Source: Eledone cirrhosa
Lineage: Eukaryota
DNA length: 64,000 bases
NCBI GenBank assembly: GCA_964016885.1
Contig: CAXHJY010001609.1
Coordinates: 248,001 to 312,000 of the forward strand
Direction of reading: 5' to 3'
In this document: positions 6,376 through 34,184 of the stretch, piece after piece
Layout: each line of letters starts with the position of its first letter
Numbering within the stretch: position 1 is the stretch's first letter
The notes under the pieces: model-generated
Told to the model about the DNA's origin: nothing
Database searches by the model: none
The model's input: the letters and a program-made list of their open reading frames with translations, nothing else
Program-made: the position numbers and the translations under genes

Positions 6376-6445
6376 GCCGTAGCTCAGTTAGTAGCAGCTC
6401 CGCTTACTAACCTTAGGGCTATCCGATACATGGTTCGAATCTTAC
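6376..6445 (+). mobile_element. tRNA-like (Pol III A/B box) SINE head relic
   Basis: GCCGTAGCTCAGTTAGT (A box) ... GGTTCGAATC (B box); no closed cloverleaf. Confidence 0.45.
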
Positions 6446-6519
6446 ACTCTTCTCTATAGTGCCACATTTTAAAAATTTCACCCGACTTTAGTTTACTCAA
6501 CGGACCGTATAATCAGAAC

Positions 6520-6680
6520 AATTTGATTGGCTGAAATTCTGATTGGCTGTTCTCGATTTCTGATTGGCTGTTCTCATGTTCAAAATTAAGCGCGGCCATA
6601 ACTCTTTAATTCAAATGTCATAAATAGGCATATACTGTTTGATTTCTCTTTTTAAAAAAGGCTAACGATATATTTGAATG
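6520..6680 (+). promoter_or_regulatory. Candidate cell-cycle promoter: 3 CCAAT boxes plus CHR-like sites
   Basis: GATTGGCTG at 6525, 6541 and 6562; TTCAAA at 6579 and 6610; TTTGAA at 6673. Lies about 2 kb upstream of the kinesin ATG exon. Confidence 0.5.
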
Positions 6681-7819
6681 GCTAAGAGATTTCGTAAGGA
6701 AAAGGCATTTTGTTTTTTGACAGTCTATTGTTTCATATTTGACTTTGGACTTTGGACAAAGATTAAACTGAAACAGGGAAATAGATAATTCTTTCTTTAT
6801 TTATAGATAATAATAATGATAATAATTATTATTATTACTACAACACCATCCTTACAGGGTCGATAAAATAAAGTACCGGACTGGGGTCGATTTATTTGGC
6901 CTTTTCTTTCCCTCCCTAAAATTCTTGGCCTTGTGCCTGATTCTGAAACCATTATTATAGGCTCAATAAAATAAAGTACCAGTAACGCACTGGGGTCGGT
7001 CGATTTAATCGATTTTCTCCCTCCTCCAAAATTGTTGATTTTGTGTCTAAATGAGAAACCATTATTATGGGGTGGGTCGATAAAATAAATGTTACTAATA
7101 TGACCACTTTATAGTCTAGACTGGGTACTTTCCGTTGTCACCAATACCTTATAGGGTAGACTGGGTACTTTTTGTTGTGTCACTAATATAACCACCTTGT
7201 AGGGTGGACTGGGTTAGATTTGTTTTGGAAATGGTAATTTGATATCTTCCTCCCTACCTCTCTCTTTTTTAAGGTGTCGCCAAGATGTTCAGTGGTCAAG
7301 CAGCGACTATATACCTATGTATCTATCTTAAAACAACAAAACCAATTTGCTATCCATTTACCCACCTATCTATATACCTTTCTATCTACCTACCTATATA
7401 CCTACCTATTTATATATTACTGTCTGTCTACTTGACTGACAATCTATATTTACCAATGTAACCATCTTTGGACAGCACAAATCCCAATAGCAATCTAAAG
7501 ATGTGTTTCTTTATTAGCCACAGGGGAACAAAAGAAGGGGACAAATACAAAGGGGGAAGTTTACATACAATAAAAACTGAATAGATAGATAGGAAGTCAT
7601 CATAATTTAGTGATATATATTTGATAGCAATAAAAAAAAAATGGAAGTAAATTATTGTAATTGATTTAAATGAATATAAAATCAATTCAGATGATTGTCA
7701 GAGTAACAAGAGGGAGAACGTTGAGGAAAATCAAGGATTGAAGTATGTTTAAATAAAATGTGTAATCAAGAATTATATTTTTACTATGAAGCCTATCATT
7801 TTTGACAGATACTATGTTA

Positions 7820-8100
7820 GTATCATCATCATCATCATTTTACATCCGCTTTTCCCTGCTTGCAAGGGTGGGACGGCAACTGTTTCTGGCTTCATTTCTA
7901 CAGCTGGATGTCCTTCCTAACACCAACCTCATTTATAGTGAGTGCTGGGTGCTTTTGTTTGCCGTGGCAACCTCCACGACCACTTTGCAGTGGAATGATA
8001 GGGACCCCAGTCTCTATCATCTCATTTCTACAGCTGAGTAAACTGGAGCAATGTGAAATAAAGTGTCTTGCTTGCTCAAGGAAACAACACATCACCCGCT
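7820..8100 (-). mobile_element. tRNA-derived SINE with RTE-like tail (5' truncated)
   Basis: Same family as 11832-12180. Confidence 0.75.
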
Positions 8101-8707
8101 CTGTATTGTTTCCTTGAGCAAGACACTTTATTTTACATTGCTCCTCCTTCCTGGATAGTGTTAACAATTGGAAAGAACTCCACTCCACTTGTTAAGCGAA
8201 TGGGGTCTGGGATCTTGTTGGCTAGTGGAATTCTAGTGCTGCAGTGGCCCTTAAATTAAACTGCAAATTGTAGTGTGTCTTATAAGTTATCAAATATGGT
8301 ATATATATATATATGTGTGTTTATATATATATATAATGGAAGAGGCCATGTAGCCGGTAAGAGTGTCAGCTTGAGTTAAGACAATTTGAAATGTTTTCCA
8401 CCATCAATTGTTAAAAAAACAAGTTAAAATCATTTAGTCATCCATTCGTGTGTTATACTTTAGTTACATACACACACATCTACATGTAAATACACAAACA
8501 GATACAGACAACAGAACTACAAACGTACATACACACATACATCTACTGAAACATTCATATACACACATCTATGTAATGATTGGAGAAGGACGGGGCTGGT
8601 GAAACACTATAGCGATGTGTGTATCGCGTCCCTTTAGGGTTTACCGGCTATGTAACATATTTGATACATAATCTGTATCTCCTGCATATATTAACAGAAA
8701 CTACAAT

Positions 8708-8860
8708 ATGTCAAGTGGTGAAACCATTCCGGCAGAAGAGAAAATTGCAGATGGCTTGCTGGATGACTTCTATTCGGAATCAACAGAGAACTTTGAGAAG
8801 TTAAAGGTTTACCTGAGGGTTCGACCATTCACTGTTGAAGAGAAGCAGAATAAACATCAG
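8708..8860 (+). CDS. KIF20A: Kinesin-6 (KIF20A/B-like) coding exon 1
   Basis: MSSGETIPAEEK...KLKVYLRVRPFT; upstream acceptor AG at 8697, donor GTAGAG. Confidence 0.8.
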
Positions 8861-9054
8861 GTAGAGTTTATCTTTCTTGATTAACCTCTTGTGATACCAA
8901 ACTGCTTGAAACCACCACCAGTTCTATGATAGAAAGCTGTTTGTTTTAAGGTTTTTATATTTGTTTGAAAGTCCTGATTATACACAGAATATGTAAAAGT
9001 GGGTTTGTCATTAATACACCCAAATAAACCCCCTACGAGATATAACCTCATTGG

Positions 9055-10250
9055 AGGCCAGCTAAACCTACATAGATGTTAGCTGTAACATGACAAGACT
9101 GGGGGTCCCTATCATTAAAGCCCCAGGAAACCTGTGAGATACAACATTATAGGTCAACTAAACCTACATAGATGTTAGCTGTAACATGACAAGACTGGGG
9201 GTCCCTATCATTAAAGCCCCATGAAACCTGTGAGATACAACATTATAGGTCAACTAAACCTACATAGATGTTAGCTGTAACATGACAAGACTGGGGGTCC
9301 CTATCATTAAAGCCCCAGGAAACCTGTGAGATACAACATTATAGGTCAACTAAACCTACATAGATGTTAGCTGTAACAACAACAGGATTGGAGACTCTAT
9401 CATTAAAATACCCAAGAAACCTCCTATCAGATACAACCTTGTACTAGACCAGCTAAACTTACAGAGCTGTAACAGGACTGGACTGGAGCCCTTGTCATAA
9501 ACCCCAGTAAACCTATCAGATACAACCTTGTACTAGGCCAGCTAAATCTACAGAGCTGTAACAGGACTGGAGCCCTTGTTATAAACCCCAGGAAACCTAT
9601 CAGATACAACCTTGTACTAGACCAGCTAAACTTACAGAGCTGTAACAGGACTGGACTGGAGCCCTTGTCATAAACCCCAGTAAACCTATCAGATACAACC
9701 TTGTACTAGGCCAGCTAAATCTACAGAGCTGTAACAGGACTGGAGCCCTTGTTATAAACCCCAGGAAACCTATCAGATACAACCTTGTACTCGGCCAGCT
9801 AAACTTACAGAGCTGTAACAGGATTGGACTGGAGAGCCCTTGTCATAAACCCCAGGAAACCTATCAGATACAACCTTATACTCGGCCAGCTAAACTTACA
9901 GAGCTGTAACAGGATTGGACTGGAGAGCCCTTGTCATAAACCCCAGGAAACCTATCAGATACAACCTTGTACTCGGCCAGCTAAACTTACAGAGCTGTAA
10001 CAGGATTGGACTGGAGAGCCCTTGTCATAAACCCCAGGAAACCTATCAGATACAACCTTGTACTCGGCCAGCTAAACTTACAGAGCTGTAACAGGATTGG
10101 ACTGGAGAGCCCTTGTCATAAACCCCAGGAAACCTATCAGATACAACCTTGTACTAGGCCAGCTAAATCTACAGAGTTGTGAGCTGTAACAGTAGGACAG
10201 GAAACCTATGAGATACAGATTTGTACTAGGCCAGTACATTTGTACAGAGC
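9055..10250. repeat. Compound intronic minisatellite (~96-bp units, then ~83-90-bp units)
   Basis: Repeated AAACCTACATAGATGTTAGCTGTAAC and CCTATCAGATACAACCTTGTACT. Confidence 0.9.
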
Positions 10251-10559
10251 TGTGAACTTTAAATTTAATTTTTCATTATTTCCAGTGTTTCAATCACTAA
10301 AAATAACAATGAAAAGGGTCAGTGTTACCTCTCACCCTTCTAACTTTTATTTGCTTGTCTATCAAAGTTGTTTAACCCTTTAGCATTTACATTATTCTAC
10401 ATTTGCTATTGTATTTTCACAGTAAACACTTTATCTCACTTAATGCAGAATCTATGAGATGCTGATGTTTATTTTGAGAACAATAACTTAACATAAGTAT
10501 GAGGAGCTGGTTTAAATGCTAAAGGGTTAGTTGATGACCAAATGATCAGTGCATACACC

Positions 10560-11112
10560 CTTATATTTTCTAGTGTCCACTGTCATCTGTCCTTTTATCT
10601 TCTCTTGTCTATCCACCAGAGCTGTTTATTAATTGGTCCTCCACCTTATATTTTTTGTCTGTCCAACATAGCTGTTTAATTGCTGGTCACTCCATACACC
10701 CCCTCCCCTAACTGACCTTCTCTTGTGTCTCTCCACCAGAGCTGTTTATTAATTGGTCCTCCACCTTATATTTTTTGTCTGTCCAATATAGCTGTTTAAT
10801 TGCTGGTCACTCCATACACCCCTCCCCTAACTGACCTTCTCTTGTGTCTCTCCACCAGAGCTGTTTGTTAATTGGTCCTCCACCTTATATTTTTTGTCTG
10901 TCCAATATAGCTGTTTAATTGCTGGTCACTCCATACACCCCTCCCCTAACTGACCTTCTCTTGTGTCTCTCCACCAGAGCTGTTTATTAATTGGTCCTCC
11001 ACCTTATATTTTTTGTCTGTCCAACATAGCTGTTTAATTGCTGGTCACTCCATACACCCCCTCCCCTAACTGACCTTCTCTTGTGTCTCTCCACCAGAGC
11101 TGTTTGTTAATT
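10560..11112 (+). repeat. ~119-bp tandem repeat containing the exon-2 splice acceptor
   Basis: CCACCAG|AGCTGTTT with the AG ending at 10619, 10739, 10858, 10977 and 11097. Confidence 0.9.
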
Positions 11113-11353
11113 GACGGCCAACTGATCACTGCGTATGCCCCGAAAGACCCCAACACCTTTAAAAGCAGCACCTACACAGCCAACAAGAACATCCAGTCGT
11201 TCAAGTTCTCCAGGATATTTGAGGAGCAGACCCAACAGAGTGAATTTTACAGTGAAACATGTGAGGGCCTTGTGAAAAACTTCCTCGGCGGACAGAACTG
11301 CCTCGTATTTGCCTACGGAGTAACCAACTCTGGCAAGACTTATACAGTACAAG
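11098..11353 (+). CDS. KIF20A: Kinesin-6 exon 2 (P-loop)
   Basis: FKFSRIF...NCLVFAYGVTNSGKTYTVQG; AG/GT boundaries in phase. Confidence 0.92.
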
Positions 11354-11831
11354 GTATACATTCTTTTTCTATATTATTATATATCATCATCGTCATCATC
11401 ATTTAACGTCCATCTTCCACGCTAGCATGGGTTGGACGGCTTTGACGCACTTGAGAAAAGATTGGTCGGGTGACCATGTCTCGCTCGTTCTGGCGGATTT
11501 TTTTACGGCTGGATGCCCTTCTTAACCACATTTACAGTGCCTTTTTACCGCATCTCGTACACAACCACTTTACAGTTAGAGGATGGAGTAGGGGTGTGGG
11601 GTGTATATTGGGTTATATATATACAGGTAAAATTCCGTTATAAAGAATTTTTCAGTATAACAAAATTTTTTTTTCAATTCCTGAGGTAATAAACAAACAA
11701 TCGCTCGATTTCTTTTGGTTGATCTCGTTGTAAAGAATTTTTCATTACAATAAATTTTTTTTTATACCCCGTAAATTTTGATATAATAGAATTTTATTGT
11801 ATGAGTGTTGGTGTATTTGTGTGTGTGTTTG

Positions 11832-12180
11832 TGGAGGCACATGGCTTAGTGGTTAGAGCATTGGCCTTGCAATCGAAAGGTTGTGAGTTCAATTCTCAGA
11901 CCGGGTGATGTGTTGTTTCCTTGAGCAAGACACTTTATTTCACATTGCTCCAGTTTACTCAGCTGTAGAAATGAGATTATAGGGATTGGGGTCCCTATCA
12001 TTCCACTGCAAAGTGGTCGTGGAGGTTGCCACGGCAAAAAAAGCACCCAGCACTCATTGTGAATGAGGTTGGTGTTAGGAAGGGCATCCAGCTGTAGAAA
12101 TCAAGCCAGAATCAGTTCCCATCCCACCCTTGCAAGCAGGGAAAAGCGGACGTAAAATGATGATGATGATGATAATGATG
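11832..12180 (+). mobile_element. Full-length tRNA-derived SINE with RTE-like 3' tail
   Basis: TGGCTTAGTGG A box, GAGTTCAATTC B box, central CCTTGAGCAAGACAC block, (GAT)n tail. Other copies at ~14047-14395(+), 15700-16073(+), 18615-18960(-), 20534-20880(+), 21650-22118(-) and 23690-24010(-). Confidence 0.85.
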
Positions 12181-12278
12181 TGTGTTTGTGTAATGATAAT
12201 TAAATGTCTGACTAAATGCCAAAGTTTCTATAATTCATTGTTTTGAAAACTACTGCCATTGTGTAATTATTATTGTAG

Positions 12279-12466
12279 GAACTCCGAAGGAACCAGGTAT
12301 ATTACCCCGTACCCTGGAGACCATCTTCAATCATGTCTCAGGCAGATTATGGCACGGGTTCGACATTAAACCCAAGATGTACCGCGATGCGATAAAATTA
12401 TCTCCGAAGATTGAATCTGAAGAGAAACAGAAGAAAGAGGAACTATTACGACTAGCTTCCTTTGAG
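12279..12466 (+). CDS. KIF20A: Kinesin-6 exon 3
   Basis: GTPKEPGILPRTLETIFNHV...; start of the long loop-6 insert typical of kinesin-6. Confidence 0.9.
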
Positions 12467-12929
12467 GTCAGTTCTTTTCTGAATTATAATTATTTATTAC
12501 TAGATGAAGGCGACAGCATCTTCCCCTTTCTGTCTATTCTACAACATTTAGTAAGATGGCCAACCAGATGACCTTTAGTAATTCCAGTAATTAGAGCGAA
12601 CACTGTGTAGAAAGAATGTTACTGTCTTTTTTTTTTTCAGTGGAATTCCATCAACCATGGCCCTCAACAAAATCCAAGCACGACTTACATTTGAGTGCCA
12701 CTCACACACAAACATTCTCACTCTCTCCATCTATGTATATCTCTTGGCGCTCTCCCCTCTCTATATATAGATGTGTGTGTCTATATATATATATATATAT
12801 TTGTGCATGTCTATATATATATATATCGGTGCATGTTTATATATATATCTGTGCATGTGTGTCTATATATATATATATATATTTGTGCGTGTCTATATAT
12901 ATATATCTGTGTATGTCTATATATTGCAG

Positions 12930-12966
12930 GAATTTGATAACCAGAGCACTTCTGCAGACAGTGGCT
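12930..12966 (+). CDS. KIF20A: Kinesin-6 exon 4 (37-nt mini-exon)
   Basis: TTGCAG|EFDNQSTSADSG|GTGAGT; supplies the phase needed between exons 3 and 5. Confidence 0.7.
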
Positions 12967-13684
12967 GTGAGTCATGCACTTTGGATGCACATGAAACTGG
13001 CCAAGATGAGGAATGGTGACCTAGTGGTTAGGGTGTTGGACTAATGACCATAAAGTCATGGGTTCAATTCCTGGACTAGGTGGCTTTGTTGTTTTTTGAG
13101 CAAGACATTTCTTTTTATATTACTTTGATGATAGAATTGGGGGGGGGGGGGTCCTATCATTAAAAAACTCGTGAAACCTCGTATGGGCTACAAACCTCTC
13201 GGGACAGACTTTAGGACAGACATGTGTTTGTGTGTGATAGGACTGAGGGCTGTTATCATGAAAAAAACTCAAGATGCAACTGTTTGGGAGGCCAGCTAAA
13301 CCTATAAATGCGTACATGTGTGTGATAGGACTATGGGCTGCTATCATTAACCCTTTAGCATTTAAACTGGCCATATTTGGCCAGAGTTCTGACCACTTTC
13401 TGTTCAAACTGATTTTAACCAGCCACTCTTATTTTATGGTATTCTCATAATAAATAATATCAAAATCTCGTAGATTCGATTTTATATGAGGTAAAACATT
13501 TACCATGAAAATATAATAGTAAATATAGAGTAATGTAAATACTAAACCTGTAAATGTGTGTATGTATGTGTATATATATATATATAAAAGTATTGAAGTT
13601 TTCGTTGAAAAAGTCAGTGGAATGAAGAGTGCTCTATGTAAGTTACAGAGCTAAATATTTAATGTATAATAAACAATACAATAT

Positions 13685-13763
13685 AATTACCTCATTACCA
13701 AAGGTTTCCTGAATAAGACGAATACAAGAAACGTCCGCATTCGTTTCGTCAGACAAGGCAATT
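13685..13763 (-). ncRNA. Type I hammerhead-like motif (family F)
   Basis: AATTGCCTTGT CTGACGA A ACGAATGCGG..CTTGTATTCGT cttattcag GAAA CC TTT GG TA ATGAGGTAATT. Stem I is 11 bp; the base of stem II is irregular. The element is flanked by (TA)n. Confidence 0.5.
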
Positions 13764-14541
13764 TAAAACATAGTGCTATATGTATATATATATATATATA
13801 AAAATGAAGAATTAGAAATAGAAGCCAGGACTATCCGTCATCAGTGGTCTACTAGCCATCATAGGTATTTCTTCGCATTACAGACCCTATACCTCAGGCT
13901 AGGGTGATGCAATAACTAAAATAAGTTATTGGGATAAAAAGAGTTGGGTGGAGAAAGAGAGACAGGTAAACAAACACGAATGGTGAGGCAACGTAAAGAG
14001 AGGAAAAAATGAGAAAATCAAGTCAATAATTCATATATATATAATAGAGGCACATGGCTTAGTGGTTAGAGCATTGGTCTTGCAATCGAAAGGTTGTGAG
14101 TTCAATTCTCAGACTGGGTGATGTGTTGTTTCCTTGAGCAAGACACTTTATTTCACATGCTCCAGTTTACTCAGCTGTAGAAATGAGATGATAGGGACTG
14201 GGATACCTATCATTCCACTGCAAAGTGGTCGTGGAGGTGCCACGGCAAAAAAAAGCACCCAGCACTCACTGTAAATGAGGTTGGTGTTAGGAAGGGCATC
14301 CAGCTGTAGAAATCAAGCCAGAATCAGTTCCTGTCCCACCCTTGCAAGCAGGGAAAAAGCGAACGTAAAATGAAATGATAAATGAAATGAAATGATATAT
14401 ATGTGTATATATATATATATTTGTGTGTGTGTGTGAGAGGACTAAGGGCTGCTATCATTAAAGCCTCCAAGAAACCTCCGAGATGCAAGCATGTAGGAGG
14501 CCAACTAAACCATTTTATTTAAATTGTTTGATTTTCTGCAG

Positions 14542-14745
14542 ATTCTGACATCAATGAGGAAGACTTGCTCCGTTCAACCCAGCTGGAGGACTCCATGTTT
14601 TCCAACCAATTGAAGTACTCGGTGTGGATCAGTTTTGCCGAGGTCTACAATGAACAGGTTTTTGATCTGTTGGTCACTCAGATCCATAAGAGACGCAACA
14701 TCTTGAAGCTGGGCCAGGACAGGAATGGTAACCATTATATTCGAG
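14542..14745 (+). CDS. KIF20A: Kinesin-6 exon 5
   Basis: YSVWISFAEVYNEQVFDLL...NHYIRG. Confidence 0.92.
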
Positions 14746-15392
14746 GTGAGTACTAATACTTTGCTTTTAATATGGAGATTTATATAGTGGGGTGGGCAGA
14801 AAATATTTATATGGTGGTGGGGTGGTTGTTGCCATAAAATATACAAAACAGAACACACCTAGTACAGTAAAGTGGTAGTATTGGTGTCTCAAAAATGCAC
14901 CCAGTCCACTCTGTAAAGTGGTAGTGGAGGTACTACGATAAAATGCGCCCAGCTGGTGCTTTGATAAAATTTATTCAGCCCACCCTGTAAAGTGATAATG
15001 CTGGTGCTGCGAAAAAACACACCCAGTACAGTAATTTGGTAGTGCAGGTGTCATAGAAATGTAGCCAGTACATTCTGAAAAGTCGTAGTGGAGGTACCAT
15101 GATAAAATGCACCTAGCTGATGCTGTAAAATAGTAAGTGCTGGTGCTTCAAAAAAACACACCCAGTACACTCTGTAAAGTGATAGTGCTAGTTCTACGAA
15201 AAAACACACACCAGTACACTCTGTAAAGTGATAGTGATGGTGCCACAAAATACACTCAGTACTCTCTGTAAAGTTGTACTGCTGGTGTCATCCAATCCAT
15301 ACTAAGCATGGGAAACAAATGTTGATGGTGGTTGTGGTGATTGTTTTTGACCATTGTCTTGATTTCTTTGTGTGTGTGTGTTTGTGTTCTAG

Positions 15393-15504
15393 GTTTGACA
15401 GAAGTGAATGTCTCCACCATTGAAGAAGCCCAGAAATTTCTGCTTTTGGGCCAGACAAACCTCCACAAAGCAGCGACAACACTCAACGATAATTCATCTC
15501 GAAG
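15393..15504 (+). CDS. KIF20A: Kinesin-6 exon 6 (switch I)
   Basis: LTEVNVSTIEEA...AATTLNDNSSRS. Confidence 0.92.
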
Positions 15505-16150
15505 GTCAGTGTTTACTTATTGATATTTACATCTTATTCCATTTGATGAAACTAATACTTCATGAAATTGCATCCTCTTTTTTACTCAGGTTTTGTTTCC
15601 TTGAGATATATATATATATATGGTGGCATTGGCCTTGAAATATATATATATATGGTAGAGCATTGGCCATGAGATATATATATATATATATATATATATG
15701 GTAGAGCATTGGCCTTGCAATCAAAAGGTTATGAGTTCAATTCTCAGACCGGGTGATGTGTTGTTTCCTTGAGCAAGACACTTTATTTCACATTGCTCCA
15801 GTTTACTCAGCTGTAGAAATGAGATGATAGGGACTGGGGTCCCTATCATTCCACTGCAAAGTAGTCGTGGAGGTGCCACGGCAAAAAAGCACCCAGCCCA
15901 CACTGTAAAAGTGGTCGTGTCGGCGCCACAAAAAAAGAACAACCAGCACTCACTGTAAATGAGGTTGGTGTTAGGAAGGGCATCCAGCTGTAGAAACCAA
16001 GCCAGAATCAGTTCCCGTCTCACCCTTGCAAGCAGGGAAAAGCGGACATAAAATGATGATGATGATAATGATGAATCCAAAATCATCAATCCCACTTACA
16101 TAATATATCTCTCACCAAATTCAATTCATTTCTTTCTCTTCCTATTGTAG

Positions 16151-16222
16151 CCATTGTATATTTAATATAAAACTCTTAGAAGTTCTTAACCGGGAGAATC
16201 ATAGTGGTGTTAAAGTCAGCAT
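16151..16222 (+). CDS. KIF20A: Kinesin-6 exon 7
   Basis: (S)HCIFNIKLLEV...VKVSM; TGTAG/GTGAGT boundaries. Confidence 0.88.
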
Positions 16223-16337
16223 GTGAGTACTCTTACATTTCTTTTACTGCTACCATTGCTCTCTCTCTCTCTCTCTCTCTCTCTATTCTGTTACTGGTTT
16301 CAGTCATTAGACAATGCTGTGTTAACTTATTTTATAT

Positions 16338-17040
16338 ATGGCGTCTGCCTCAGGAATTCTGATTAGCTGACAACATCTGTGTCAGATGTCTGTCTGTGAT
16401 TACTGTGTATGGGCAGTGTCTGTTGACAGTTGTGTGCTTGATGCCAATGTATTTGCTGTCTCCTCTTGATATCTGTGAGGTATTTGTGATTCGTTTCAGT
16501 TTCCCCCTGCCCCCCATGGCGTCTGCCTCAGGAATTCTGATTAGCTGACAAGATCTGTGACAGATGTCTGTCTGTGATTACTGTGTATGGGCAGTGTCTG
16601 TTGACAGTTGTGTGCTTGATGCCAATGTATTTGCTGTCTCCTCTTGATATCTGTGAGGTATTTGTGATTCGTTTCAGTTTCCCCCTGCCCCCCATGGCGT
16701 CTGCCTCAGGAATTCTGATTAGCTGACAAGATCTGTGACAGATGTCTGTGATTACTGTGTATGGGCAGTGTCTGTTGACAGTTGTGTGCTTGATGCCAAT
16801 GTATTTGCTGTCTCCTCTTGATATCTGTGAGGTATTTGTGATTCGTTTCAGTTTCCCCCTGCCCCCCATGGCGTCTGCCTCAGGAATTCTGATTAGCTGA
16901 CAAGATCTGTGACAGATGTCTGTGATTACTGTGTATGGGCAGTGTCTGTTGACAGTTGTGTGCTTGATGCCAATGTATTTGCTGTCTCCTCTTGATATCT
17001 GTGAGGTATTTGTGATTCGTTTCAGTTTGCCCTTGCCCCC
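16338..17040. repeat. ~175-bp tandem repeat x4
   Basis: ATGGCGTCTGCCTCAGGAATTC at 16338, 16516, 16694 and 16868; single copy in the inverted arm (23236-23408). Confidence 0.9.
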
Positions 17041-17529
17041 CAAAACTTTTGGCCTTCTGCCTAAATCAGAAACCGTTATTATTTTTGGAGGGCGTTGGAT
17101 TGGCAGTATCGGTAGAGCGTCGGACACCATGCTTTGCAGCATAGAGTTATGGCGCTTAACGTTCTGCGTTCAAATCCCGCTGGCTGAGGTTAGCTTTGCC
17201 TTACATCCATTTAAGGTTGATAAAATAAAGTACCAGTAATGTACTGGGTAATTGCTGGCCTTGTGCCTAAAATAGAAACAATTATTAGTTTGGTGGATTG
17301 GCAGTATCGTTAGAGGGTCGGACGCCATACTTTCTAGCATAGTTACGTCCCTTTATGATCTGAGTTCAAATTTCGCCGAGGTTAACTTTGCCTTTCATCC
17401 TTACAGGGGTCGATAAAATAAAGTACCAGTAATGTACTGGGTAATTGCTGGCCTTGTGCCTAAAATAGAAACAATTATTTTTACATTATTTAAACTTTTT
17501 TTTGTTTGTTTTGTTTTTGTCTTGTTTAG

Positions 17530-17676
17530 GTTGTCACTGTGTGACTTGGCTGGCAGTGAACGGGCATCTAAAACCTATTCTACTGGAGACCGACTGAAAG
17601 AGGCCGGCAACATCAACACCTCGCTGTTAACTCTTGGTCGTTGTATTGAAACAATGAGGGTTAATCAGATAAGAAG
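17530..17676 (+). CDS. KIF20A: Kinesin-6 exon 8 (switch II)
   Basis: [11 protein letters not shown]...[19 protein letters not shown], a KIF20-type signature. Confidence 0.93.
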
Positions 17677-18013
17677 GTGAGTTGAGGCAAAAGTAGGACA
17701 GGAACCTTTACTAGCAGAGAAAGTGGATATTGAATGATTGTGGGGTAGATGTTGGGGTTGTATATATATTTATACATAGGGATTGTATTGTCCAGTTACT
17801 GTAGGTTCACCAGAGTGAGCACTTGATGTGTAGTTTCCAGTTGGTATATTAGTGTTGTACTAAGCAGAGTGTAATACTAATAAAAATAAAAAGGGCAAAG
17901 TGTTAGATCTTCGTTATGTTTATTGAGGTTTGATGCGCGTTTCGTGATTTGTATAGTATTAATGTCTGGTTAAACTTGAGTATTTATTTATTTATATATA
18001 CATTTTTTTGTAG

Positions 18014-18507
18014 GGACTTTCCGAGACTGAACCCTTACCGAGATAGCAAATTAACCCGTCTATTCAAGGGTTTCTTCAATGGTCATGGCAAGGCCATAAT
18101 GATTGTCAACGTGAACAAATGTAGCAAGGTGTTCGACGAGAGCCTCCAGGTGTTCAAGTTCTCCGCCATTGCCAAGCAGGTTGTCATCCAGAAGGACCCA
18201 CTGAAGGCACCGGCACTCGAATTATCTCCTGTCCTCCCTCTTCGACCCTTATCTAACCTTCAGAAGGACCCACTGGAGGCACCGGCACTCGAATTATCTC
18301 CTGTCCTCCCTCTTCGACCCTTATCTAACCTTCAGAAGGACCCACTGGAGGCACCGGCACTCGAATTATCTCCTGTCCTCCCTCTTCGACCCTTATCTAA
18401 CCTTCAGAAGGACCCACTGGAGGCACCGGCAGTGAACGTATCTCCTCTCCTCCCTCTTCGACCCTTATCTAACCTTGAGCGGGTTTCAATACCTTCGGCT
18501 GAAGACG
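18014..18507 (+). CDS. KIF20A: Kinesin-6 exon 9 (motor end plus 24-aa repeats); reads to a stop at 18515 if unspliced
   Basis: PYRDSKLTRLF...MIVNV...FSAIAKQV followed by 4x QKDPLEAPALELSPVLPLRPLSNL; possible donor GTAATT at 18508. Confidence 0.85.
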
Positions 18508-19019
18508 GTAATTAATTTTCACCACCTTTGCTTACATTTCAGTCCCCCTCCCCTCACACTATCTGAACCCTCACCTTCCATGTTTAGAGAGCAACTGGGT
18601 GACCCCTGTGGGAATCATCATCATCATCATCATTTCATTTTACGTCCACTTTTAACTGCTTACAAGGGTGGGACGGGAACTGATTCTGGCTTGATTTCTA
18701 CAGCTGGATGCCCTTCCTAACACCAACCTCATTTACAGAGAGTGCTGGGTGCTTTTTTGCCGTGGCACCTCCACGACCACTTTACAGTGGAATGATAGGG
18801 ACCCCAGTCCCTATCATCTCATTTCTACAGCTGAGTAAATTGGAGCAACGTGAAATAAAGTGTCTTGCTCAAGGAAACAACACATCACCCGGTCTGAGAA
18901 TTGAACTCACAACCTTTCGATTGCAAGGCCAATGCTCTAACCACTAAGCCATGTGCCTCCATAATTCTGCAGTTTAATTAGAATCAATCACAAAGTATTA
19001 AAGATCAATACAAATATAT

Positions 19020-19540
19020 CATCATCATCATCATCACCGTTTTACGTCCGTTCTTCCACGCTAGCATGGGTTAGACGGGTTGTCCTGTTGTGGGCAGTGT
19101 CCGGTCGGCTAACCTTGTCTTGCTCATATGGGAACTGATTCTAGCTTGATTTCTACAGCTGGATGCCCTTCCTAACACCAACCTCATTTACAGTGTGGGC
19201 TGAGTGCTCTTTTGCAGTGGGAGGGTGTGGGGGCATATTGTCTATATGCTTCAGCTTTGGCTTGTACCCATGGGAAGGGTCGGGTCTTCTGTATTACTGC
19301 GTCACGCCAGAGGTCACGGTTGTGTGTCATTGTCTTTGAGAGGTGTAATTGGGTAACGTCGGCTTTTATCACCTCATCCCAAGTCTTCTTGAGTCTCCCC
19401 ACTCCGCGGTTTCCATCGACTTCTAGTGCACTGCACCTTTTTATGCAGCTGTCACCCTTCATATGCATCACATGTCCATACCAACGCAACCGCCTCTCCT
19501 GCACACAGCATTTGATTCCTCTTATGCTCAGTCTCTTTCT

Positions 19541-19545
<5 letters not shown>
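19020..19545 (-). mobile_element. RTE LINE 3' fragment (mirror at 19950-20475, + strand)
   Basis: RRLRWYGHVMHM...KKTWDEVIK plus 3'UTR and (GAT)n tail. Confidence 0.8.
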
Positions 19546-19602
<57 letters not shown>

Positions 19603-19634
19603 AGAACAAAAGATGGTTAAAGGAGTTCCATGTA

Positions 19635-19701
19635 TTTTATTATGCGCATTTCAAAAACAAATATCATCATGTAATAATATTTGTGTTTTCATCAGATAAA
19701 A
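19635..19701 (-). ncRNA. Type I hammerhead ribozyme (family B)
   Basis: Reverse complement of 19817-19883. Confidence 0.75.
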
Positions 19702-19816
19702 CAGGAGGACATGATATGAAGGCTAAAAAACACTTGTGGATAGTTCATTGATTTAAAACTGATTTAAAACTGCACTATCCACAAGTGTTTTTTAGCCTTC
19801 ATATCATGTCCTCCTG

Positions 19817-19883
19817 TTTTATCTGATGAAAACACAAATATTATTACATGATGATATTTGTTTTTGAAATGCGCATAATAAAA
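19817..19883 (+). ncRNA. Type I hammerhead ribozyme (family B)
   Basis: TTTTAT CTGATGA AAACACAAATATTAT..ATGATATTTGTTTTT GAAA TGCGCA TA ATAAAA. Stem III is palindromic and the cleavage triplet is AUA. Confidence 0.78.
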
Positions 19884-20987
19884 TACATGGAACTCCTTTA
19901 ACCATCTTTTGTTCTTATATATTATATATAAATATATATATATATATATTGAGAAAGAGACTGAGCATAAGAGGAATCAAATGCTGTGTGCAGGAGAGGC
20001 GGTTGCGTTGGTATGGACATGTGATGCATATGAAGGGTGACAGCTGCATAAAAAGGTGCAGTGCACTAGAAGTCGATGGAAACCGCGGAGTGGGGAGACT
20101 CAAGAAGACTTGGGATGAGGTGATAAAAGCCGACGTTACCCAATTACACCTCTCAAAGACAATGACACACAACCGTGACCTCTGGCGTGACGCAGTAATA
20201 CAGAAGACCCGACCCTTCCCATGGGTACAAGCCAAAGCTGAAGCATATAGACAATATGCCCCCACACCCTCCCACTGCAAAAGAGCACTCAGCCCACACT
20301 GTAAATGAGGTTGGTGTTAGGAAGGGCATCCAGCTGTAGAAATCAAGCTAGAATCAGTTCCCATATGAGCAAGACAAGGTTAGCCGACCGGACATTGCCC
20401 ACAACAGGACAACCCGTCTAACCCATGCTAGCGTGGAAGAACGGACGTAAAACGGTGATGATGATGATGATGATGATATATTTGTATTGATCTTTAATAC
20501 TTTGTGATTGATTCTAATTAAACTGCAGAATTATGGAGACACATGGCTTAGTGGTTAGAGCATTGGCCTTGCAATCGAAAGGTTGTGAGTTCAATTCTCA
20601 GACCGGGTGATGTGTTGTTTCCTTGAGCAAGACACTTTATTTCACGTTGCTCCAATTTACTCAGCTGTAGAAATGAGATGATAGGGACTGGGGTCCCTAT
20701 CATTCCACTGTAAAGTGGTCGTGGAGGTGCCACGGCAAAAAAGCACCCAGCACTCACTGTAAATGAGGTTGGTGTTAGGAAGGGCATCCAGCTGTAGAAA
20801 TCAAGCCAGAATCAGTTCCCGTCCCACCCTTGTAAGCAGTTAAAAGTGGACGTAAAATGAAATGATGATGATGATGATGATTCCCACAGGGGTCACCCAG
20901 TTGCTCTCTAAACATGGAAGGTGAGGGTTCAGATAGTGCGAGGGGAGGGGGACTGAAATGTAAGCAAAGGTGGTGAAAATTAATTAC

Positions 20988-23609
20988 CGTCTTCAGCCGA
21001 AGGTATCGAAACCCGCTCAAGGTTAGATAAGGGTCGAAGAGGGAGGAGAGGAGATACGTTCACTGCCAGTGCCTCCAGTGGGTCCTTCTGAAGGTTAGAT
21101 AAGGGTCGAAGAGGGAGGACAGGAGATAATTCGAGTGCCGGTGCCTCCAGTGGGTCCTTCTGAAGGTTAGATAAGGGTCGAAGAGGGAGGACAGGAGATA
21201 ATTCGAGTGCCGGTGCCTTCAGTGGGTCCTTCTGGATGACAATCTGCTTGGCAATGGCGGAGAACTTGAACACCTGGAGGCTCTCGTCGAACACCTTGCT
21301 ACATTTGTTCACGTTGACAATCATTATGGCCTTGCCATGACCATTGAAGAAACCCTGGAATAGACGGGTTAACTTGCTGTTTCGGTAAGGGATCAGTCTC
21401 GGAAAGTCCCTACAAAAAAATGTATATATAAATAAATAAATACTCAAGTTTAACCAGACATTAATACTATACAAAGACTGATAATACACACAGCTAATAC
21501 TATACACACACACATTAACACAATACCTCACACCTCTATATTAAACACTGACGACACATAACAAATGTATATACATATATATATATACATCTTGCTAACC
21601 CATGCTAGCATGGAAAAATGGACATTAAACAGTGATATTTTTTTTTTTTTTTTCAATTTACATCCACTTTTCCCTGCTTGCAAGGGTGGGACGGGAACCG
21701 ATTCTGGCTCGATTTCTACAGCTGGATGCCCTTCCTAACACCAACCTCATTTACAGTGGGTACTGGGTGCTTTTTTGCCGTGGCACCTCCACGTCCACTT
21801 TACAGTGAGTGCAGAGTGCTTTTTTGCCGTGGCACCTCCACGTCCACTTTACAGTGAGTGCAGAGTGCTTTTTTGCCGTGGCACCTCCACGTCCACTTTA
21901 CAGTGAGTGCTGGGTGCTTTTTTGCCGTGGCACCTCCACGACCACTTTGCAGTGGAATGATAGGGACCCCAGTCCCTAACATCTCATTTCTACAGCTGAG
22001 TAAATGTGAAATAAAGTGTCTTGCTCATGGAAACAACACCACATCCCCCGGTCTGAGAATTGAACTATAACCTTTCGATTGCAAGGCCAATGCTCTAACC
22101 ACTAAGCCATGTGCCTCCTATATATATATGTACACACACACACACAAATCGTTTTAACATCCACGTTCCCTGTTGCAAGGGTTAGAAATATGTATGTATG
22201 TGTATATATAATGACATTACCATAACAGAAGCTCAACAAGCTTTTGAATCCAGAGTCAGGCCAGATCAATACAGATCGAGCCTTAAGCTGATCAATCACG
22301 AAACGCGCATCAAACCTCAATAAACGTAACGCAGATCTAACACTTTGCCCTTTTTATTTTTATTAGTATTACACTCTGCTTAGTGCAACACTAATATACC
22401 AACTGGAAACTACACATCAAGTGCTCACTCTGGTGAACCTACAGTAACTGGACAATACAATCCCTATGTATAAATATATATACAACCCCAACATCTACCC
22501 CACAATCATTCAATATCCACTTTCTCTGCTAGTAAAGGTTCCTGTCCTACTTTTGCCTCAACTCACTTTCTTATCTGATTAATCCTCATTGTTTCAATAC
22601 ATTGAGTGAGAGTTAACAGCGAGGTGTTGATGTTGCCGGCCTCTTTCAGTCGGTCTCCAGTAGAATGGGTTTTACATGTTCGTTCACTGCCAGCCAAGTC
22701 ACACGGTGACAACCTAAACAAAACAAAAACAAAACAAACAAAAAAAAGTTTAAATAATGTAAAAATAATTGTTTCTATTTTAGGCACAAGGCCAGCAATT
22801 ACCCAGTACATTACTGGTACTTTATTTTATCGACCCATATAAGGATGAAAGGCAAAGTTAACCTCGGCGAAATTTGAACTCAGATCATAAAGGGACGTAA
22901 CTATGCTAGAAAGTATGGCGTCCGACCCTCTAATGATACTGCCAATCCACCAAACTAATAATTGTTTCTACTTTAGGCACAAGGCCAGCAATTTGGTGAG
23001 GAGAGGTTAAGTTGATTAAATCGACCCCAGTGCAATACTGGTACTTTATTTTATCAACCTTAAATGGATGAAAGGCAAAGCTAACCTCAGCCAGCGGGAT
23101 TTGAACGCAGAACGTAAAGGGCCATAACTCTATGCTGCAAAGCATGGTGTCCGACGCTCTACCGATACTGCCAATCCAACGCCCTCCAAAAATAATAACG
23201 GTTTCTGATTTAGGCAGAAGGCCAAAAGTTTTGGGCGGCAGGGGGGAAACTGAAACGAATCACAAATACCTCACAGATATCAAGAGGAGACAGCAAATAC
23301 ATTGGCATCGAGCACACAACTGTCAACAGACACTGCCCATACACAGTAATCACAGACATCTGACACAGATCTTGTCAGCTAATCAGAATTCCTGAGGCAG
23401 ACGCCATATATAAAACAAGTTAACACAGCATTGTCTAATGACTGAAACCAGTAACAGAATACAGAGAGAGAGAGCGAGAGAGAGGAGAGAGAGCGAGAGA
23501 GTAATGGTAGGAGTAAGAGAAATGTAAGAGTACTCACATGCTGACTTTAACAACACTAGGATTCTTCCGGTTCAGAACTTCTAAGAGTTTTATATTAAAT
23601 ATACAATGG
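20988..23609 (-). pseudogene. Partial inverted KIF20-like copy: exons 7 (23538-23609), 8 (22567-22713) and 9 (20988-21409)
   Basis: Open frames and intact splice sites, but exons 1-6 are absent from the window. Carries L>P before DLAGSE and D>N in PYRDS. Confidence 0.8.
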
Positions 23610-24008
23610 CTACAATAGGAAGAGAAAGAAATGAATTGAATTTGGTGAGAGATATATTATGTAAGTGGGATTGATGATTTTGGATTCATCATTATCATCA
23701 TCATCATTTTATGTCCGCTTTTCCCTGCTTACAAGGGTGGGACGGGAACTGATTCTGGCTTGGTTTCTACAGCTGGATGCACTTCCTAACACCAACCTCA
23801 TTTACAGTGAGTGCTGGGTGCTTTTTTGCCGTGTCACCTCCACGACCACTTTGCAGTGGAATGATACGGACCCCAGTCCCTATCATCTCATTTCTACAGC
23901 TGAGTAAACTGGAGCAATGTGAAATAAAGTGTCTTGCTCAAGGAAACAACATATCACCCATTCTGAGAATTGAACTCATAACCTTTCGATTGCAAGGCCA
24001 ATGCTCTA

Positions 24009-24052
<44 letters not shown>

Positions 24053-24313
24053 ATATCTATATATATATATCTATATATATATATCTATATATATATATCT
24101 ATATATATATATCTATATATATATCTATATATATATCTATATATATCTATATATATATATCTATATATATATATCTATATATATATATCTATATATATAT
24201 ATCTATATATATATATCTATATATATATATCTATATATATATATCTATATATATATATCTATATATATATATCTATATATATATCTATATATATATATCT
24301 ATATATATATATA

Positions 24314-25260
24314 GACCAAAAGGTCATCAATGGCGTGGATGACCGGATAAGCCTTCAGTCAGACCTACTGGCTGTTACCCAATGGGCAGAAAAGAACAAC
24401 ATGTTACTGACCGAGGACAAATTCGAACTGATCCACTTTGGAAAAGAGGATGCTCTGAAACTCCCGTACTCCCTTCCCTCCGGGGAAACTCTCGTGGCAT
24501 CTAACAACATCAGAGACTTGGGAGTAACCGTGGACAGCAACATAAGCTGGACCACGCATATAAGCAGCAAAGTTGACATGGCCCGCAGAATGTGTTCCTG
24601 GATCCTCAGAACCTTCCAGTCGAGAGATTCCCGCACCATTATCCTTCTCTTCTCTACTTTCGCCCGACCACACCTTGAATACTGTTGTCCACTGTGGTCT
24701 CCCCACACGAAACAAAGTATCATGAAACTTGAAGCTCCTCAAAGGGCAATCACGAAAAAGATAGATGGCATGTCAGACCTTGACTACTGGGGTCGATTGG
24801 AAAACCTGAAACTTTACTCACTCCAACGTCGCCGTGAGCGTTATATTATCTGCATGATGTGGAAACTGTTCCATCATCACTGCCCAAATGATGTTGGCAT
24901 CGCCTTCAAGATACACCCAAGGCTTCGGCCCCGTGCTATCCGTCCCATTCAAAAATCTAAATCGCAACTCATAACAACAATACGGCACAATTATTTCACC
25001 TCAATCGGCCCTGCTCTCTTCAACATCACAACAAGGACACGTCAAAACAGAAACTGACCACTCAAAATTCAAGAAGTCTTTGGACAAATTCCTCCAAGTA
25101 ATCCCGGACAAACCACCCACACCCGGATATGTCTCCGCAAACAGTAATTCTCTTCTCGAATGGGCCATGGTGCCCAAATCCTGAATTGAAAGACTTCGCC
25201 AGGTGGTGCTATTAAGTTAGACATGGCCTGGGCCAATACTGGCCAAAACATTTCAAAGTT
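24314..25260 (+). mobile_element. CR1-group LINE, 5'-truncated, embedded in (TA)n
   Basis: [29 protein letters not shown] and [10 protein letters not shown] motifs. Confidence 0.85.
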
Positions 25261-29467
<4,207 letters not shown>

Positions 29468-31489
29468 ACTTACATTTAAGTAAGTGCCATACTAAGAGTG
29501 AGAAATGAAATTTCGTTTTCATTTTTGTCAACTTATCGTTTTCGGTATGCCTGACCGATTTAACTCACTCAATATGCAAATTAGGCTGCTCAGCCGTTAA
29601 TTTTCATAAGGAAAGTATATACTTTCGAACGTTCAACTATCTGGCAGATGGGTAAACGGTGTTGATGATAGCTAACAAGCTTGAAACTAGTACATCGTTC
29701 CTGTGTCAGTGTTGAACAAAAAGGTGACGTGGTTGCCTTAACACCGTATGGCATAAATTCAGGCTATTCGGATTGTTAACAAACAAACGAACAAAGCGGC
29801 GTTGTAATAAACGTCCGCTAAACTGATGCGTGCATATATGTATGTGTACCTGTATGCATATATGTATATATATGTATATATATGTATATATATATATATG
29901 TATATATATGCATGCTACTGTACGTCTGTATACATATATGTATGTACGTATACATACATACTTACATTTAAGTAAGTGCCATACTAAGAGTGAGAAATGA
30001 AATTTCGTTTTCATTTTTTTCAACTTATCGTTTTCGGTATGGCTGACGGATTTAACTCACTCAATATGCAAATTAGGCTGCTCAGCCGTTAATTTTCATA
30101 AGGAAAGTATATACTTTCGAACGTTCAACTATCTGGCAGATGGGTAAACGGTGCTGATGATAGCTAACAAGCTTGAAACTAGTACATCGTTCCTGTGTCA
30201 GTGTTGAACAAAAAGGTGACGTGGTTGCCTTAACACCGTATGGCATAAATTCAGGCTGTTCGGTTTGTTGACAAACAAACGAACAAAGCGGCGTTGTAAT
30301 AAAGGTCCGCTAAACTGATGCGTGCATATATGTATGTGTACCTGTATGCATATATGTATATATATGTATATATATATATATATATGTATATACATGCATG
30401 CTACTGTACGTCTGTATACATATATGTATGTACGTATACATACATACTTACATTTAAGTAAGTGCCATACTAAGAGTGAGAAATGAAATTTCGTTTTCAT
30501 TTTTTTCAACTTATCGTTTTCGGTATGCCTGACCGATTTAACTCACTCAATATGCAAATTAGGCTGCTCAGCCGTTAATTTTCATAAGGAAAGTATATAC
30601 TTTCGAACGTTCAACTATCTGGCAGATGGGTAAACGGTGCTGATGATAGCTAACAAGCTTGAAACTAGTACATCGTTCCTGTGTCAGTGTTGAACAAAAA
30701 GGTGACGTGGTTGCCTTAACACCGTATGGCATAAATTCAGGCTGTTCGGTTTGTTGACAAACAAACGAACAAAGCGGCGTTGTAATAAACGTCCGCTAAA
30801 CTGATGCGTGCATATATGTATGTGTACCTGTATGCATATATGTATATATATGTATATATATGTATATATATATATATGTATATATATGCATGCTACTGTA
30901 CGTCTTTATACATATATGTATGTACGTATACATACATACTTACATTTAAGTAAGTGCCATACTAAGAGTGAGAAATGAAATTTCGTTTTCATTTTTTTCA
31001 ACTTATCGTTTTCGGTATGGCTGACCGATTTAACTCACTCAATATGCAAATTAGGCTGCTCAGCCGTTAATTTTCATAAGGAAAGTATATACTTTCGAAC
31101 GTTCAACTATCTGGCAGATGGGTAAACGGTGCTGATGATAGCTAACAAGCTTGAAACTAGTACATCGTTCCTGTGTCAGTGTTGAACAAAAAGGTGACGT
31201 GGTTGCCTTAACACCGTATGGCATAAATTCAGGCTGTTCGGTTTGTTGACAAACAAACGAACAAAGCGGCGTTGTAATAAAGGTCCGCTAAACTGATGCA
31301 TGCATATATGTATGTGTACCTGTATGTATATATGTATATATATGTATATATATGTATATATATATGTATATATATGCATGCTACTGTACGTCTGTATACA
31401 TATATGTATGTACGTATACATACATACTTACATTTAAGTAAGTGCCATACTAAGAGTGAGAAATGAAATTTCGTTTTCATTTTTTTCAA

Positions 31490-31492
<3 letters not shown>
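29468..31492 (+). repeat. 4 units of the ~490-bp HHR-bearing satellite (inverted relative to the main array)
   Basis: Reverse complement of 46277-48300, with matching unit variants. Confidence 0.93.
30147..30191 (+). ncRNA. Minimal type I hammerhead (family A), representative copy
   Basis: AACGGTG CTGATGA T AGCT AACA AGCT T GAAA CTAG TA CATCGTT. Confidence 0.82.
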
Positions 31493-31571
<79 letters not shown>

Positions 31572-31670
31572 TATATATATATATATATATATAGATATAT
31601 ATATAGATATATATATATATATATATATATATAGATATATATATATATATAGATATATATATATATATAT

Positions 31671-31707
<37 letters not shown>

Positions 31708-31984
31708 TATATATAGATATATATATATATATAGATATATATATATATAGATATATAAATATATATATAGATATATATATATATAGATATATATATATAT
31801 ATATATATAGATATATATATATATATATAGATATATATATATATAGATATATATATATATATATAGATATATATATAGATATATATATAGATATATATAT
31901 ATATATATATATATAGATATATATATATATATATAGATATATATATATATAGATATATATATATAGATATAGATATATATATAT

Positions 31985-32021
<37 letters not shown>

Positions 32022-32104
32022 GGAGGTGAGTTTTATTGTAGTACAATAAAGCAATGCAGATATCGGATAAGAAGCACTCTACAGTTTGTGGGACTGGAGT
32101 ATGC

Positions 32105-33890
32105 ATAATATAAGATCAAAAGATGGTTAAAGGAGTTCAATATATTTTATTATGCGCATTTCAAAAACAAACATCATCAAACAATAATATTTGTGTTTTC
32201 ATCAGATAAAACAGGAGAACATGATATGAAGGCTAAAAAAACACTTGTTGATAGTGCAATCATCATTCATCTTTCAAATACAAACTTAAAAGAACTAACA
32301 CTGCTCTCTCAGAACTCATATGGTCCTTAAAAGACAAAAACATTAAATATAACATCTTTTGGAAAAAGATTTCTTCTGCATCCTCGTACTTGAACAGTTC
32401 TCTATCTAAAATCTGTAATCTCTGCCTAAATGAAAAATTTACCATTATCTCTAACCTAGAATCCATAATAAATAGACGCTCGGATTTGTTTTCCATCTGC
32501 CTCCATAAATTCCATAGAACTTTTCACAAAGTATACAGTTAATATTCAATTCTTTATCAATTTAGAATCTTTTCTCAAAGGCACATATACATACACCTCT
32601 TTAAAATATACCCATCTACCTTACTTTAAAGGGCATTATACACTCTATAGTACTCGTTTATTCATTTACCTCATCCTATCTTCTCGTAAAACAATAACAT
32701 TTGTTTTTGACATTTTGAATATTCATCCGCAATCATTATTATTTTTTTTTTTTTTTCCCTCTATCATAAATCTTTTTAATCTCAATTTCATCCTTAATTT
32801 ATTATTATATATTTTTTTTAATATATACTCATATATTCTTTAAAATATACCCATCTACCTTACTTTAAAGGGCATTATACACTCTATAATACCCGTTTAC
32901 TCATCACCCTCATTATATCTCTTCGTAAAACAATAACATTTGTTTTTGACATTTTGAGTATTCATCCGCAATCATTATTATTTTTTCTCTCTATCATAAA
33001 TCTTTTTAATCTCAATTTCATCCTTAATTTATTATTATTTTTTTCTCCCCATCAACGAACTCATTATTAATACATATGAATTCAATATAAAAACTTTAAC
33101 TTCACATTATTTTTCTCAAATCCTATACATAAACATTTTCTCTTTGCTAATTTTAAGATTCCTACATTTCTCCTTTTGAATATTCACCCACAATTATTAT
33201 TTTTTTTCTCTCTATCTCCATACATAATCTCCCTTCGTTATTTTTTTCTCTCTATCTCCATACATAATTTCCCTTCGTTAATTTTCAAATTCCTTTAATT
33301 TATACATTATCTTCCAACGGTTCCCAACCTCTCTATATTAAAACATTATATCTTTTTCTCAGTTATAAAAACTATCTCTTTCTCTCTATCACCCATCTCT
33401 CCCTTTCCACCTTCACTCTCATCTCCTCCCCTTTTTTTTCATCCTTTCCACCCCCACCCCTCCCTAAATATAATATATTTTTTCCTCGCACATATCCTCC
33501 CTTCGTTAATTTTCAAAAATTTTTAATTTATACAGTATCTTCCAACGGCTTTCAACCCCTCTATATAAAATATATCTCCTCTCTGTTATAAAAACTATCT
33601 CTTTCTCTCTATCACCCATCTCTCCCTCTCATCTCCTTCCCTTTTCATCCTTTTCTCTCCCCCCCCTCTCTAAATAAAATATTTTTCCCAATATCACACA
33701 TCAATCTAAAACCACTTTTCATATGTTGATTTAAAACTGCACTATCAACAAGTGTTTTTTTAGCCTTCATATCATGTTCTCCTGTTTTATCTGATGAAAA
33801 CACAAATATTATTGTTTGATGATGTTTGTTTTTGAAATGCGCATAATAAAATATATTGAACTCCTTTAACCATCTTTTGATCTTATATTA
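32105..33890. mobile_element. ~1.8-kb unit bounded by ~155-bp inverted repeats, each carrying a family-B HHR (32145-32211 -, 33785-33851 +)
   Basis: Terminal inverted repeats are homologous to 19595-19920. The interior is AT-rich with internal duplications and no recognisable ORF. Mirror copy at 43870-45655. Confidence 0.75.
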
Positions 33891-33901
33891 TATATATATA
33901 T

Positions 33902-33944
<43 letters not shown>

Positions 33945-34015
33945 TATAGATAGATATATATATATATATATATATATATAGATATATATATATATATATA
34001 TATATAGATATATAG

Positions 34016-34050
<35 letters not shown>

Positions 34051-34109: not shown

Positions 34110-34184
<75 letters not shown>

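Follow-up and report, generated by a model that had tools for sequence, protein, structure and literature searches.

How a truncated kinesin gene, introns included, came to lie mirrored around a pair of retroelement remnants is the question raised by a locus of Eledone cirrhosa, examined here in a window of 64,000 nucleotides from a contig designated C1636 (other sequences of the assembly are likewise designated by C and a number). The gene is KIF20-like, and the remnants at the apex of the palindrome are two head-to-head stubs of the pseudo-long terminal repeat (pLTR) of a Penelope-like element, each with a hammerhead motif, set in a (TA)n tract of intron 9. The stub pair probably seeded fold-back repair simply by being an inverted repeat, with a passive role, an explanation that is given about an even chance. 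The combination, a large inverted partial kinesin-6 duplicate centred on a Penelope stub pair, is made of known ingredients; in a partial search of the literature, no host-gene palindrome with a Penelope stub at its apex and no cephalopod KIF20 duplicates were found reported.

Global alignment of 15590-19758 against the reverse complement of 19759-24060 gave inverted arms at 15690-19748 and 19770-24010, which differ by 68 substitutions over 3430 aligned columns. It bore out the symmetry centre proposed in the initial annotation, with its tandem duplication, the two divergent hammerheads each joined to (TA)n, and the differences between the arms: 4 versus 1 copies of a 174-bp repeat, 4 versus 3 copies of a 72-bp coding repeat (three in the right arm), and an 820-bp indel containing a short interspersed element (SINE). 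The last is a deletion in the left arm, since the parent gene on C22 carries the stretch. The same annotation had the mirror end after 8 kb at an outer (TA)n, which proved wrong: the right arm is broken off at the (TA)n at 24011, and the mirror picks up again 96.3 kb later at C1636:368270, the mirror position, remaining colinear with indels to about 391233 against 231573, with an outermost block of only 91% identity. The full arms measure about 36 kb and 27 kb, so that the mirror present in the assembly sequence spans tens of kilobases, and the apex junction occurs once in the whole assembly. The 96.3-kb insert contains a fragment of a long interspersed element, microsatellites, Penelope-like elements and a 492-bp satellite.

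The identity of the gene was deduced from several comparisons. Exon 9 has a Pfam Kinesin match, the P-loop and switch motifs are visible in the alignment of the kinesin copies, and the closest named homolog is an Argonauta hians protein (74% to exon 2), which in a PDB search matched KIF20A best (E 1e-106; next kinesin 9e-59); judged by its sequence, the gene is KIF20-like and belongs to kinesin-6. Exon searches of the assembly located exon 2 in four copies (twice on C1636, once each on C18 and C22) and exon 9 in three. The intact parent, at C22:18817871, runs on beyond its intron-9 (TA)n, and the rest of intron 9 with exons 10-11 is single-copy and lies on C22, among the best-scored candidates. 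The duplicated unit comprises the first nine exons and about 2 kb upstream of the gene. Both C1636 copies are convergent and 5'-partial (exons 1-9), with nine exons, intact splice sites and no internal stop; both stop after exon 9, and the coiled-coil stalk and tail are absent. The left copy has 554 open codons and then reads through to a stop at 18513-18515, just within intron 9, while the right copy has an intron 6 of 97 kb and a Leu to Pro change immediately before the DLAGSE motif. The partial C18 copy holds exons 1-6 and ends at the same (TA)n at which the right arm is interrupted, with a scaffold gap 27 kb past it. The further copies that the initial annotation had suggested looking for are the C22 parent and the C18 partial copy, the latter ending at a (TA)n that lacks the apex element. 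The repeats beside the C18 truncation were considered as the lost downstream flank of the palindrome and rejected, the sequence being a young dispersed repeat; repeats are also all that C18 and the 96-kb insert share. On C22 itself, the parent's same (TA)n holds a very young 560-bp repeat (C22:18827250-18827810; several copies 100% identical), and C22:18868406-18900000 is occupied by units of about 6.3 kb in tandem, 96-98% identical and each with a 400-bp palindrome.

The three derived copies are 0.9-1.0% apart and 2.5% from the parent over 5387 columns. With the arms only about 1% apart, the duplication from C22 therefore preceded the fold.

The stubs at the apex belong to a family dispersed in the genome, with (TA)n as its target, and differ from the nearest family copies at 1-2 of 146 bp. 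At C5:77657763-77661629, two direct pLTR copies 3.7 kb apart flank an 821-aa open reading frame (ORF), apparently an intact autonomous Penelope-like element. Its YRDDG motif is invariant among 18 homologs, GIY-YIG-like and Cys/His motifs are found at its C-terminus, and the top match of its predicted fold is a telomerase reverse transcriptase (RT). The ORF itself had no Pfam match and none in PDB sequence searches; among the homologs, Pfam matched GIY-YIG in 3/18 and RVT_1 in 1/18. On these motifs, the apex stubs are assigned to a young endonuclease-positive (EN+) Penelope-like family. Penelope-like elements carry hammerheads with a long helix II and a small palindromic helix III, a layout that the apex fits, and these reportedly cleave poorly and need dimers (PMC4209133; papers are cited by identifier). 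The core is intact in 59/63 family copies by motif parse, the call being a manual parsing; an Rfam search gave no hammerhead match, and the fold of the apex motif is unexceptional (z about -1). The two apex hammerheads lie on opposite strands, and their self-cleavage is putative. Penelope-like insertions with inverted truncated pLTRs, a tail on one side and a microsatellite as target have been described before (PMC8557442, PMC11167929), the one-sided tail being described there as optional and as reflecting two reverse-transcription start sites (PMC11167929). The apex thus resembles EN+ Penelope-like insertions (PMC8557442, PMC4209133, PMC11167929) in its inverted, 5'-truncated pLTR pair with hammerhead and in a full-length member with two pLTRs around an RT and GIY-YIG frame, and differs from them in being tail-less at both ends and in the mirroring of host DNA past the element.

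How unusual this form is was assessed by a census of stub pairs elsewhere in the assembly. A first search covered 41 family loci and yielded 23 other, unselected pairs; three pattern searches targeted at tail-less ends added 34, of which 24 were tailed and 10 tail-less. The head-to-head pair in (TA)n is the usual insertion form of the apex family, and an 87-bp tail stands at exactly one end in 23/23 unselected pairs and in 47/57 altogether, with flank mirroring in none of the 47 tailed pairs. The studied apex has the rarer form, lacking the tail at both ends. Among the other tail-less pairs, that at C3:298263411 has about 40 bp of patterned microsatellite mirrored, that at C4:292938325 is ambiguous, being nested within another repeat pair, and that at C25:2204979 has 16 unique bases mirrored up to the contig end, with no inverted triplication found within 30 kb of it. 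At C25:2204779-2205354, a scaffold gap is flanked by two hairpin contig ends, the right one being this pair. An independent tailed pair of the same family lies at C22:18853097-18853522, 26 kb downstream of the tract in intron 9 of the parent.

Passive fold-back at the stub pair would accommodate these observations in five steps. Exons 1-9 and about 2 kb upstream were first duplicated from C22 into a duplication-rich region, as the copies themselves show; the young stub pair would then have been inserted into (TA)n, a pattern that is evident in the family, with the order of events presumed. A break at or beyond the pair may next have exposed the repeat, so that the strand folded back, the substrate being a broken or cruciform DNA end at the 150-bp inverted repeat; the distal DNA (tail and remaining gene) would have been lost and the flank copied by synthesis. 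The end may have become stable through a switch to a copy that had already diverged a little, or through annealing with such a copy; alternatively, the apex-proximal 1.5 kb may have been homogenised arm to arm later. Finally, the 96 kb of repeats seen in another (TA)n, in the right copy, would have built up at some stage. The hammerheads would be passengers of the pLTR, unneeded for the fold. Consistent with passive fold-back, the tail is absent at both ends and an asymmetric central junction is kept, as predicted; the DNA 3' of the tract is single-copy, the apex junction is unique and the parent tract is free of the element; and the mirror far exceeds what the element could copy by itself. 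In yeast, fold-back at inverted repeats is followed by flap removal and later stabilisation through repeats (PMC10622511). Like the yeast events (PMC10622511) and origin-dependent inverted-repeat amplification (ODIRA; PMC10766186), the locus combines a short inverted repeat and a small asymmetric central spacer with loss of distal DNA and a long mirrored flank; unlike them, it is apparently germline and about 1% old, is seeded by a retroelement stub pair in (TA)n and shows layered divergence, and no second inversion junction of the triplication type was found. The retroelement-driven duplication and truncation first suggested for this DNA accordingly survives in part: the Penelope identity and the kinesin-6 duplication and truncation in the assembly stand, and the element as copying agent has become less likely.

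Table 1. Position of the features discussed, in window coordinates unless a contig is given.
Feature	Position	Strand	Remarks
Window	C1636:248001-312000		C1636 contig 452 kb; genome 3.0 Gb
First pLTR stub	19597..19748	-	5'-truncated, tail-less
Second pLTR stub	19749..19920	+	tail-less; 145 bp identical to first
Type I hammerhead motif	19633..19703	-	CUGAUGA, long helix II, GAAA, palindromic UGCGCA loop, UA
Type I hammerhead motif	19815..19885	+	same sequence as minus-strand motif
Apex centre	19745..19773		asymmetric; 11-bp tandem duplication TGATTTAAAAC
Intron-9 (TA)n target tract, left side	19543..19596		parent's equivalent tract without Penelope-like stub pair
Right (TA)n tract	19921..19949		26 bp shorter than left; one A interrupts
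Outer left arm	1..15689	+	extends upstream as far as about C1636:231573; mirror, with indels, lies beyond the window at C1636:368270-391233
Inner left arm	15690..19542	+
Inner right arm	19950..24010	-	exons 9 (20988-21409), 8 (22567-22713) and 7 (23538-23609) of right copy
SINE-containing stretch, 820 bp	21476..22294	-	present in C22 parent, gone from left arm
Repeat-rich insert, first part	24011..64000		in intron 6 of right copy; whole insert 96.3 kb, ends C1636:368270
Parent-homologous segment	6659..19590	+	matches intact parent gene at C22:18815773-18827248
Left KIF20-like copy	8708..18515	+	9 exons, motor domain only
Left-copy exons 1-5	8708-8860, 11098-11353, 12279-12466, 12930-12966, 14542-14745	+
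Left-copy exons 6-9	15393-15504, 16151-16222, 17530-17676, 18014-18507	+

Several observations weigh against passive fold-back at the stub pair. Divergence between the arms is about 0.5% close to the apex and 1-3% farther out. Arm differences relate to shared derived sites as 4:26 up to 1.5 kb from the apex, 50:38 in 15690-18070 and 54:106 outside; this layering is significant (best-breakpoint permutation, p 0.0015), also in introns alone (2:12 versus 29:28, p 0.016). A single sister-strand fold-back is therefore insufficient and an extra step must be assumed; two mis-joined alleles would give layered divergence too. An early idea that tail-less pairs always have mirrored flanks was rejected, as 7/10 such pairs are without any mirror, and the missing apex tail is for this reason suggestive only. 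The C18 truncation and the 96-kb insert, moreover, lie at (TA)n without an element of the apex family. Lastly, when reads were placed on 18490-19840, none of the listed pieces crossed the apex, which was swamped by repeat copies.

The reads in question came from run data consisting of short contigs and restriction-site-associated DNA (RAD) reads; the contigs derive from a single sample, which may be the one that was assembled, so that they are not independent evidence. Right-arm letters of exon 8 were present in run X1 and parent letters in X2 and X3; one contig crosses the left-arm deletion point (17947) with 28 letters on the short side, below the 31-letter rule, and the contigs also contain the SINE junction common to both arms. 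They support three sequence types, not their linkage, and copy number estimated from contig depths does not separate the models.

The strongest competitor, considered unlikely, is an assembly artefact: either two alleles, each bearing the stub pair, would have been fused back to back at this self-complementary element, or a fold-back read would have given rise to the fusion. C1636 is of a size typical of unplaced contigs and highly repetitive; near-identity beside a young shared insertion, set in layered divergence, is the pattern of two alleles; and the arms are about 1% apart, the same as the C18 copy. The C25 pair stands at a contig start, with its 16-bp unique mirror and a facing contig end that is also a hairpin, and the window contains another mirror, in which 1865 bp are free of substitutions. 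Fold-back reads make up about 0.55-0.6% of nanopore genomic DNA, whereas PacBio HiFi is virtually free of them (PMC12870357). Against the artefact, the assembly has neither a second copy of the junction nor a downstream continuation, it traverses 47/47 tailed pairs unmirrored, and the ends of the C1636 contig, when compared, show no mirror relation to each other. The arms already differ 170 bp (TA length) and 660 bp from the apex, which a single molecule read twice would not show, and a join would presumably depend on at most 147 bp of high-copy repeat. With three derived copies in a diploid, one duplication or more must be real.

Rather less favoured is an active bridging, in which the Penelope enzyme would prime cDNA on two chromatids or two copies, at the same (TA)n in each, and the cDNAs would join head to head, the fold-back being the product of the insertion itself. 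The two ends agree in being tail-less, their (TA)n tracts are unequal in length and the apex resembles a primary inversion junction, and the two reverse-transcription start sites proposed to lie behind the tail (PMC11167929) would suit such a process. L1 insertions bridge sister chromatids and produce fold-back inversions in tumours (PMC7058536), with which the locus shares retroelement sequence at a head-to-head duplication junction; here, it is a symmetric stub pair of Penelope type, not one L1 bridge, and apparently not somatic. Yet tail-less pairs also come from ordinary single-site insertions (7/10 unmirrored), no feature at the apex distinguishes bridging from passive folding, and the layered divergence demands a second step under bridging too.

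Slightly more doubtful again is a fold of the bare (TA)n, itself a perfect palindrome, with the stub pair inserted at the apex later as a passenger. Every breakpoint of the derived copies is in a (TA)n tract, the parent's same tract was struck by a different, very young repeat, AT/TA repeats have been reported as cruciform-forming fragile sites, and arm-to-arm conversion would account for the near-apex identity. A fresh insertion is nearly always one-tailed, however (23/23 unselected pairs), so that an extra symmetrising deletion would be needed, and the divergence of the stubs (1-2 of 146 bp) fails to show that they are younger than the outer arms. Mobilisation of the rotifer type, in which Penelope machinery would have retrotransposed the intron-containing gene in trans, has a precedent in Adineta vaga, where Penelope repeats likewise adjoin an intron-containing duplicated gene (PMC3846280), and would explain the retained introns, but this parallel, drawn in the initial annotation, does not hold and the explanation is rejected as most improbable: in Adineta the pLTRs enclose the gene and there is a target-site duplication, whereas here no Penelope repeats frame the gene, the stubs being central and the gene outside them, the arms of 27-36 kb include upstream intergenic DNA, and no stub of the apex family stands at the 5' boundary of the duplicate or at the arm ends.

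Turning to the fate of the copies, the left copy, whose frame and motor motifs are preserved, has 19 private changes that are nonsynonymous and 3 that are synonymous; the corresponding numbers for the parent-plus-stem branch are 12 and 23. By these counts, the left copy is under relaxed constraint (p 0.0001). A test for positive selection on the same 19:3 changes retained neutrality (p 0.28). Exons 7-9 (16151-18200) have a synonymous divergence from the parent of about 0.20, compared with 0.04-0.05 in exons 1-6; the introns near them differ by about 3% from the parent, and CpG transitions cover 3/15 changes. No more-diverged KIF20 paralog that could be a conversion donor for exons 7-9 was found in the assembly search. 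In an RNA-like run, a spliced contig carried parent letters only, which is uninformative on the copies, since variants are lost when contigs are built. A transcript that started at the left promoter and read through would make a hairpin over exons 7-9. A comparable arrangement is known for the ARR17 fragments of Populus (PMC9636151), which are also partial, inverted and fast-evolving copies with an intact parent on another chromosome; there, inverted partial duplicates silence the parent, whereas here a hairpin RNA is a possibility predicted from the genome sequence.

Other repeats in the window include the substitution-free mirror mentioned above, a second inverted duplication (29352-33978 versus 43782-48425), younger than the first, which comprises satellite and a truncated Penelope-like copy of the apex family and has tail-less pLTR ends in (TA)n at its inner ends. 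Another Penelope-like family is represented at 35381-37586 by a perfect head-to-head pair that has a GIY-YIG frame (Pfam PF01541) and very long flanking (TA)n. An inverted repeat pair about 1% diverged (38913-40470 and 42085-43654), a small inverted repeat of 97% identity (1048-1283 and 2346-2581) and a 492-bp satellite array of at least 36 copies (46275-64000) were also observed. Just upstream of the 5' boundary of the duplicate at 6659, broken reading frames at 5560-6010 look, by eye, Helitron Rep/helicase-like.

Fold-back duplication at inverted repeats is already known from yeast and tumours. As a whole, the proposition that the many head-to-head Penelope stubs in (TA)n are germline fold-back seeds, that the palindrome created by this one is real and that its left arm gives rise to a fast-evolving motor-only kinesin-6, or its read-through transcript to a hairpin RNA directed at the parent, a cytokinesis gene, is a tentative one and rather unlikely to hold. 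A germline, Penelope-seeded case would connect the duplication and truncation of genes with an insertion form that is very abundant among retroelements, and tail symmetry would offer a simple genome-wide screen for more cases. Should the junction instead be a mis-join, the stubs would be a pitfall when long reads are assembled. Transcription of the locus, if it occurs, would make it possible to test whether a truncated mitotic kinesin, or a hairpin copy of one, has any effect.

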